Assembly (NCBI GenBank): GCA_043825615.1
Contig: JBDRRS010000013.1
Span: forward strand, 68,325 to 132,324
DNA length: 64,000 nt
Direction of reading: 5' to 3'
DNA from: a bacterium
GTDB taxonomy: Bacteria; CG03
Under the pieces are notes generated by a model. That model worked only from the letters and a program-made list of their open reading frames with translations, was not told where the DNA came from and did not search any database. The translations under genes were made by a program, and so were the position numbers. Position 1 is the stretch's first letter. The number at the start of each line of letters is the position of its first letter. This document shows, piece after piece, positions 43,203 through 43,234 of the stretch.

Positions 43203-43234
43203 TCTGTCTGTCTGTCTGTCTGTCTGTCTGTCTG
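43203..43234. repeat. (TCTG)8 tetranucleotide microsatellite upstream of the kinase/regulator operon
   Basis: Perfect 8-unit repeat ~170 nt upstream of the kinase start codon, in the 3' flank of the sigma54-GIY-YIG gene. Confidence 0.9.

Follow-up and report, generated by a model that had tools for sequence, protein, structure and literature searches.

A hypermutable CAGA repeat ahead of a sensor kinase/response regulator operon in uncultivated bacteria: a candidate phase-variable leader switch

We analyzed a 64,000-nucleotide stretch of a bacterial genome (assembly GCA_043825615.1, 265,963-bp contig JBDRRS010000013.1, positions 68,325 to 132,324 of the forward strand; this whole stretch is referred to as the window), and in it a tetranucleotide repeat that lies between a gene encoding a fusion of a sigma54 DNA-binding domain (DBD) with a GIY-YIG nuclease domain and an operon encoding a sensor histidine kinase and a response regulator. 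The features of this locus are listed here in the order in which they are read, with lengths in amino acids (aa) or nucleotides (nt).

43290-44537, minus strand: gene for a 415-aa protein with sigma54 region III (ELH-HTH-RpoN box), i.e., the DBD, and a C-terminal GIY-YIG nuclease domain (Pfam, NCBIfam)
43286-43259, minus strand: sigma70-like promoter P1, TTGATA-16-TAAAAT (promoter scan)
43034-43249, minus strand: leader open reading frame (ORF), 71 aa in the 8-unit state, MEIILQ(TDRQ)n, with its ATG at 43249 and its TAA at 43036-43034, 3 nt before the kinase ATG
43233-43247, minus strand: 15-nt block conserved among lineages, GGAAATAATTTTGCA, directly adjoining the repeat at its 5' end (alignment of 8 copies)
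43202-43234, minus strand: tetranucleotide repeat, the hypervariable tract (Tandem Repeats Finder and direct reading)
43129-43177, minus strand: terminator-like hairpin with a U5 run, inside the leader (folding and terminator scan)
40931-43030, minus strand: sensor histidine kinase, 699 aa, MFH1957763.1, with 4HB_MCP, HAMP, PAS, HisKA and HATPase domains
40567-40941, minus strand: stand-alone receiver-domain response regulator, 124 aa, overlapping the kinase stop codon

A first, sequence-only reading of this DNA had described a perfect 8-unit tetranucleotide repeat about 170 nt upstream of the kinase start and downstream of the stop codon of a co-oriented sigma54/GIY-YIG gene, and our analysis confirmed this description. 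Tandem Repeats Finder calls a period of 4 with 8.2 copies and 100% matches, and direct reading gives (GTCT)8.25 on the plus strand, which can also be written (TCTG)8, and G(CAGA)8C on the minus strand, which is the coding strand for both flanking genes; the repeat starts 55 nt after the sigma54-DBD/GIY-YIG stop codon, and its end lies 172 nt before the kinase ATG (43030). The tract goes well past what chance would produce in the window, in which 0.09 occurrences of a 12-mer of the CAGA repeat with at most one mismatch are expected and this tract is the sole occurrence. In a regular-expression survey of the 64 kb, all perfect non-mononucleotide repeats were 12 nt or shorter except for three of 27-33 nt, which cluster within 1.5 kb of the kinase operon: the (CAGA)8 tract itself and, in the kinase gene, (GAA)10 and (GCA)9. 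The CAGA tract is not an assembly artefact, since it is also found in independent data sets (Logan SRR26275509, ENA ERZ27247117, and relatives from JGI and ENA). Folding predicts the tract to be unstructured and unpaired, no CAGA-complementary sequence able to pair with it was found elsewhere in the window, and Rfam scans of the window locus and four related loci returned no known RNA family, giving only a chance match to a snoRNA (E = 0.64).

Relatives of the locus, identified here by L numbers, were collected by means of the upstream sigma54-DBD/GIY-YIG protein and the kinase, and their copy numbers are given below, with repeat counts above ~100 nt from short-read assemblies being approximate.

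Window (NCBI metagenome-assembled genome, MAG): 8 CAGA units; reference
L020 (ENA ERZ27247117): 9 units; leader flanks with 3 substitutions in 403 columns (~99% identity)
L007 / L008 (ENA / JGI): 8 / 12 units; 6 substitutions in 2977 columns (99.8% identity)
L005 (JGI): 28.5 units; upstream protein 66% identical
L006 (JGI): at least 28.5 units; repeat reaches the contig end
L021 (JGI), a close relative of L005: at least 19 units with one interruption; contig begins inside the repeat
L004 (Elusimicrobia GH52): 4 units, interrupted/decayed; CAGACAGACAGCCAGAC
L018, L019 (Logan): at least 7 and at least 6 units; contigs end inside the repeat

This comparison demonstrated that copy number is not uniform across related genomes (8, 9, 12, 28.5 and a decayed 4), and that it differs between loci with near-identical flanks, at 8 in the window vs 9 in L020 and 8 in L007 vs 12 in L008, which bears out the earlier suggestion of a slippage-prone tract. 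For example, the kinase and regulator of L020 are 97.9% identical to those of the window, and the sole indels across leader, kinase and regulator are +4 nt in the CAGA tract, -6 nt in the GAA tract and +3 nt in the GCA tract. Likewise, the 16-nt repeat difference is the sole indel between L007 and L008, whose 416-aa upstream proteins are identical. In L004, L008b and L008c the tract has decayed, with the remainder of the leader retained. The ends of some k=31 contigs in or at the edge of the tract suggest mixed alleles within a sample: the Logan contig L001 ends after 'TG' and 29 bases of the repeat, the branch point of 7- vs 8-unit alleles, L019 stops where a mixture of 6 and longer units would branch, and a homogeneous 33-nt tract makes no branch at k=31. 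Another Logan contig, L003, begins exactly at (GCA)9. The nearest named relative of the window locus is an Elusimicrobia MAG; a DNA-pattern scan of species-representative genomes matched only the L004 contig (Elusimicrobia bacterium GH52), and scans of viral contigs, by DNA and by protein, gave no match. The CAGA tract is a truly hypermutable simple-sequence repeat, with both the structure and the polymorphism of a repeat-mediated contingency (phase-variation) locus.

Examination of the sequence around the tract placed it in a transcribed leader. Every lineage has a sigma70-like promoter that immediately follows the upstream stop codon, namely P1 in the window and a homologous TTGACT-17-TA(T/A/G)AAT after the sigma54-DBD/GIY-YIG stop codon in L005, L007, L017 and L018. 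Since both hexamers of this conserved promoter lie upstream of the repeat, the repeat is part of the leader and not of a promoter spacer, and a scan of the minus strand between the repeat and the kinase ATG (43201-43030) found no sigma70-like site. The tract lies outside the kinase ORF, not between promoter hexamers, and inside a short putative leader ORF. A second promoter with AATAAT, inside the block, as its -10 element was considered and set aside, as it is not conserved in L007 and L018. The sequence-only reading had expected unit gain or loss to change promoter geometry or read-through from the upstream gene; the positions of the hexamers do not support the former, and the latter is possible, because the stretch from the sigma54-DBD/GIY-YIG gene to the repeat contains no terminator.

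The block that abuts the repeat has the consensus GG[A/C]AATAATTTT[G/A]CA (search pattern GGMAATAATTTTGCAGACAGA) and, in 8 copies from 5 lineages, is invariant except at 2 positions, and the sequence on either side of it cannot be aligned among lineages. Read in the frame of the leader ORF (GAA-ATA-ATT-TTG-CAG), the block encodes (M)EIILQ or (E/A)IILQ. An in-frame ATG with no intervening stop precedes the block in all 8 copies, where shuffling expects ~0.17 per copy, and the same test in the other two frames gave 1 of 16. This ATG occupies three different positions among the copies, and loss of the ancestral ATG, which has become TAA in the window and ATA in L008c, is accompanied by a new one close by. 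The resulting N-termini are as follows.

Window and L004: MEIILQ
L005/L006: MKKNNREIILQ
L007/L008a: MNFDYQAIILQ
L018/L019: MNFNNQAIILQ
L008b: MNLINQEIILQ
L008c: MRYINFNYQAIILQ

The leader ORF of the window would be essentially leaderless, because its ATG lies 0-3 nt from the transcription start predicted for P1; the leader ATG of L008b overlaps a hicA stop codon (ATGA), and that of L005 lies 3 nt past one. Beyond the repeat the frame stays open for 55 codons in the window, 107 in L005 and 63 in L007, in sequences without mutual similarity, and dinucleotide shuffles put the probability of any frame being so open at 0.026, 0.017 and 0.035, respectively. At these three loci the assembled copy number sets the leader ORF in the long frame, and in L020 (9 units) and L008a (12 units) the ORF is shifted to a frame that stops in the hairpin loop. 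The leader ORF is unannotated in the NCBI record, has no Pfam match and is absent from a collection of 15 billion proteins. The 71-aa ORF had been dismissed as an artefact of the repeat, a view made doubtful by in-frame ATGs in 8 of 8 copies and by the unusual length of the post-repeat frames (P = 0.017-0.035), and judged from these sequence features the repeat-spanning ORF is unlikely to be an artefact.

Downstream of the tract, at 25-110 nt past the repeat across loci, we identified a hairpin with a U-run behind it. The window hairpin has a predicted energy of -20.9 kcal/mol (z = -3.6, with 0 of 200 shuffles equally stable), and the same position is taken in L005, L007/L008a and L008b by unrelated, stronger hairpin-plus-U-run terminators (z = -4.5 to -5.8). 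Sensor genes follow the leader in the window, L005/L021 and L008b. Because the unit is 4 nt, each gain or loss of a unit shifts the frame of the leader, and in the window the three frames end at different points.

8 units (window): leader ORF of 71 aa; crosses the hairpin and ends at TAA 43036-43034, 3 nt before the kinase ATG
9 units (the state of L020): leader ORF of ~34 aa; ends at TGA 43151-43149, minus strand, in the hairpin loop
7 units: leader ORF of ~15 aa; ends at TAG 43200-43198, minus strand, directly past the repeat

We propose, tentatively and with a probability of about 0.45, that the tract is a phase-variable leader-ORF/attenuator switch of the kinase/regulator operon. Transcription would begin at the conserved sigma70-like promoter directly past the upstream gene, and the leader ORF would start almost immediately (ATG 43249), running through the block and the CAGA tract towards the terminator-like hairpin. 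Slippage by one unit would change the frame of the leader ORF and relocate the ribosome's stop relative to the terminator and the kinase start. With 8 units, translation over the hairpin would oppose termination, and a stop 3 nt before the ATG would permit reinitiation or coupling, with the kinase and regulator being expressed; with 7 units, the early stop would allow the hairpin to form and leave ~170 nt of leader untranslated, giving low or no expression; with 9 units, the stop in the hairpin loop might give intermediate expression. Translation of the leader ORF, termination at the hairpin and the assignment of high or low expression to each frame are inferences in this scheme. The CAGA tract would then probably be a mutational on/off or dimmer switch, rather than a means of reshaping a promoter.

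Several observations weigh against this proposal. A clear Shine-Dalgarno sequence is absent from most leader ORFs, whereas downstream genes of the same loci have strong ones, and ribosomes might instead enter by leaderless initiation (window, L004) or by coupling to the hicA stop (L005, L008b). The peptide encoded after the repeat is unconserved, the three-frame stop pattern differs among loci, and L021, a close relative of L005, loses the 107-codon open frame of the latter directly past the terminator. In L007/L008a the gene beyond the terminator is not co-oriented but is a convergent PIN toxin gene. Across lineages whose neighboring proteins are only ~65% identical, the block shows no variation at third codon positions, which points to a constraint at the DNA or RNA level beyond coding. 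A hairpin beside the ribosome-binding site of the kinase does not exceed shuffled sequences in stability (z = -0.7), which speaks against translational coupling enforced by such a structure, and no alternative pairing that could form a mutually exclusive antiterminator was evident in the folds, a systematic search for one not having been made. Judged as an attenuator, the leader has an ORF with a start codon and an intrinsic terminator that this ORF overlaps or approaches, and in most copies it lacks a clear ribosome-binding site.

The gene upstream of the leader supplies a further set of observations. Its product matches Sigma54_DBD with E = 9e-17 and aligns to sigma54 residues 328-474, i.e., the ELH-HTH-RpoN box region, by which sigma54 recognizes the -12 and -24 promoter elements, and the GIY-YIG motifs are invariant across the family, the nuclease being apparently intact. 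The family is rare (57 matches among 5.8 billion clusters), PADLOC gave the protein no match to a known defense system beyond weak ones to the nuclease domain, and a literature search for a sigma54/GIY-YIG fusion found no description. The gene lies upstream of the leader in every block-bearing lineage, a linkage that is biased, because all block-bearing loci were found through the protein. A PAS histidine kinase is present downstream of it, directly or past small ORFs, across 42-100% identity (window, L005, L010, L016). The block itself matches the -24/-12 geometry of a sigma54 site, (T)GG-N8-TTGCA with exact GG-N10-GC spacing, the site being TGGAAATAATTTTGCA in the window and AGGCAATAATTTTGCA (GGCA..TTGCA) in L007 and L018, with AC replacing GC in L004, and the repeat begins exactly at the GC of the "-12" element. 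The dinucleotide spacing and context of a sigma54 promoter are present, and a cognate enhancer-binding protein and activator sites are not: no AAA+ enhancer-binding protein was found among the ORFs scanned in the 64-kb window, and a domain scan of the receiver-only regulator found neither an AAA+ nor a DNA-binding domain. The occurrence of a sigma54-like site beside a gene for a sigma54-DBD nuclease is a striking and unexplained coincidence.

Other readings of the tract differ in how much of this evidence they accommodate. A hypervariable microsatellite of the leader or 3' untranslated region (UTR) that acts without any dependence on a translated ORF, either tuning expression through leader length or RNA structure, in the manner of uspA2 (AGAT)n or hmw (ATCTTTC)n, or being neutral, with the hairpin as the terminator of the upstream gene and the kinase having its own unrecognized promoter, is possible, and we regard it as rather unlikely. 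It would fit a copy range of 4 to >28 with no evident constraint on length, the decay of the tract in three leaders that are otherwise kept, leader ORFs without Shine-Dalgarno sequences, the unconserved downstream peptide and the predicted lack of structure in the repeat; the hairpin could moreover end the sigma54-DBD/GIY-YIG transcript, which meets no terminator before the repeat. It leaves aside, however, the conserved or compensated in-frame ATGs, the non-random open frames past the repeat, a conserved promoter directed into the leader, and the lack of any promoter-like site between the hairpin and the kinase. That the 71-aa product is instead a real small protein, with a variable (QTDR)n stretch and a phase-variable C-terminus, would agree with the conserved start codon and N-terminal EIILQ and with the one long open frame, but we find it very improbable given a C-terminus that is wholly unconserved and overlaps the terminator hairpins, together with the empty Pfam and protein-collection searches described above. 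Least credible is an effect of the repeat on promoter geometry, whether on -35/-10 spacing or on the distance from an operator to a kinase promoter. The repeat is intergenic and upstream of the kinase, and nadA (TAAA)n and hif (TA)n offer precedents, but a 33-nt tract is too long for a promoter spacer, both conserved hexamers lie upstream of it, and no sigma70-like site was found on the minus strand from 43201 to 43030.

The sigma54-like geometry of the block opens a different route, in which the block is a -24/-12 type DNA site bound either by sigma54-RNA polymerase, with transcription starting inside the repeat, or by the neighboring sigma54-DBD/GIY-YIG protein; in variants of this idea, nicking by the nuclease near the tract drives or seeded its instability, or the protein is a roadblock that regulates the leader. 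Exact GG-N10-GC spacing with a TTGCA element, conservation of the block at the nucleotide level including synonymous positions, an adjoining protein that aligns to the sigma54 residues in question and has invariant GIY-YIG motifs, the linkage of gene and block in all block-bearing lineages, and a repeat that begins at the "-12" GC would all agree with it. The locus, however, has no enhancer-binding protein, its regulator being a bare receiver domain; L004 has AC for GC, the distant family members L010 and L016 have no block, and the conserved in-frame ATG is left unexplained, so that we consider a role as a sigma54-type site improbable. More improbable still is the specific suggestion that the neighboring protein recognizes the block and nicks beside or inside the CAGA tract, which would then be a programmed hypermutation site or a cutting scar that diversifies expression of the two-component system. 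A broader idea, that all repeats of the locus were seeded at sigma54-like GG-N8-TTGCAG sites, was downgraded, because the flanks of the kinase repeats follow from conserved F-A-E and F-A-A residues, the poly-Glu and poly-Ala runs being family-wide features of these kinases. The block plus repeat start, GGAAATAATTTTGCAGACAGA (43247-43233), resembles the kinase sequence before the poly-Glu tract, GGAATACTTTTTGCAGAAGAA (42070-42055, minus strand), whose equivalent in L016, TGGCATACTTTTTGCA, is a perfect sigma54 consensus; this likeness probably reflects coding constraint (G-I-L-F-A-E).

The wider neighborhood contains further repeats and mobile or toxin-antitoxin genes, of which the following are in the window.

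42024-42056, minus strand: (GAA)10, encoding a poly-Glu loop in the kinase PAS domain; length strain-variable
41782-41809, minus strand: (GCA)9, encoding poly-Ala in the PAS-HisKA linker; length strain-variable
39047-39358 and 38836-39102, minus strand: BrnT toxin and probable antitoxin, in the low-GC island

The two pure-codon tracts of the kinase differ by 1-2 residues between 98%-identical strains, and homopolymer runs (poly-Glu/poly-Ala, in the same contexts) occur in 29 of 120 kinase homologues, 25 of the 29 having poly-Glu; one-residue changes in the PAS-HisKA linker could shift the register of the signaling helix. In the L005 lineage, a small PAS protein encoded between leader and kinase has an N-terminal (GCA)12 (L005 2691-2728; L021 ~349-381) that expands an 'IAAAIL' motif limited to three Ala codons in L010 (1186-1197). 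A probable horizontal acquisition is the island of lower GC content (~38000-44600, 35-39% vs 45-48%), which adjoins gltX, hisG and tsaB-like housekeeping genes and comprises, besides the sigma54-DBD/GIY-YIG gene and the kinase/regulator operon, a XerA-like tyrosine recombinase (39587-40453, plus strand) and the BrnT pair. Among the relatives, HicAB-type toxin-antitoxin cassettes lie between promoter and repeat leader (L005 1782-2281; L008 1741-2040 and 5379-5878). L008 has three copies of the block, two of them flanking one HicAB cassette, and a short ORF from its upstream block copy ends 4 nt before the hicB ATG, an arrangement that suggests insertion or duplication of cassettes at the block. 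In L016, whose upstream protein is 49% identical, the intergenic region (1287-1350) is a decayed TGATGAT-like heptamer array and not CAGA. Elsewhere in the window, a 75/150-bp tandem array of 17 copies (20410-21681, ~76-80% identity) within an ORF on the minus strand (18900-22187) encodes DUF285 (BspA-like) repeats of a 1095-aa protein, which has a weak, sub-threshold match to the type IX secretion C-terminal sorting domain.

Almost all known cases of phase variation driven by repeats come from host-adapted pathogens and affect surface or restriction genes. Here, a variable tetranucleotide tract is retained at the same leader position, before a sensor kinase/regulator pair, across diverged, uncultivated Elusimicrobia-like lineages. 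If the leader-ORF proposal is true, it would join frameshift phase variation to leader-ORF attenuation or coupling, a combination not known from earlier work, and would mean stochastic switching of a signaling pathway in environmental bacteria; in the literature searched, no microsatellite was described within a leader ORF that precedes a terminator. The rare sigma54-DBD-nuclease fusion, constantly linked to a sigma54-like site, poses a puzzle of its own that has not been described so far, and, were the nicking idea to hold, fusion and site would form a dedicated mutator module, unlike invertases, diversity-generating retroelements or passive slippage.

Known systems share parts of this arrangement. 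In Haemophilus influenzae licA (CAAT)n and mod (AGTC)n, and in Neisseria opa (CTCTT)n, the tracts lie inside the 5' ends of ORFs, and, as here, the unit is not a multiple of 3 and sits a few codons past the start, with a unit change picking one of three frames; the frameshifted ORF is itself the effector in those genes, whereas here the frame changes would fall in a short, otherwise unconserved leader ORF ahead of the effector genes. In attenuation of the Escherichia coli pyrBI type, translation of a leader ORF across a terminator suppresses termination, and a short leader ORF likewise overlaps an intrinsic terminator that precedes structural genes; that control is physiological, through ribosome-polymerase coupling, whereas the control proposed here would be genetic, through slippage, and an antiterminator structure was not identified. 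The nadA repeat lies upstream of its promoter and acts on transcription initiation, in contrast to the CAGA tract, which lies downstream of the promoter. In cmrRST a recombinase inverts a DNA element, whereas the candidate switch here is a microsatellite. Both of these systems have features in common with the locus, cmrRST of Clostridioides difficile being a phase-variable signal-transduction operon (PMC6837544 / bioRxiv 10.1101/690230), i.e., a two-component system under a heritable stochastic switch, and nadA (TAAA)n of Neisseria meningitidis a tetranucleotide tract upstream of a gene with strain-variable copy number (PMC2193550).

The closest parallels in position are repeats in transcribed leaders. 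In Moraxella catarrhalis, uspA2 has an (AGAT)n tract in its 5' UTR, whose strain-dependent 6-23 copies set expression (Attia & Hansen 2006, summarised in PMC4679880), and in both cases a tetranucleotide repeat occupies the transcribed leader between promoter and start codon; no leader ORF or leader terminator is known for uspA2, which moreover encodes a surface protein of a host-adapted pathogen, whereas the operon here encodes a two-component system of an uncultivated environmental bacterium. The (ATCTTTC)n repeat of H. influenzae hmw1A is likewise transcribed within the 5' UTR, in a hairpin processed by RNase III, and its copy number controls expression after initiation (PMC12721329); the hmw1A heptamer forms a long hairpin with a G-rich arm, whereas the CAGA tract is predicted to be unpaired and a complementary arm was not found. 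Taken by analogy, the CAGA tract resembles the uspA2 and hmw leader repeats in its behavior, and licA, mod and opa in the logic of its frames.

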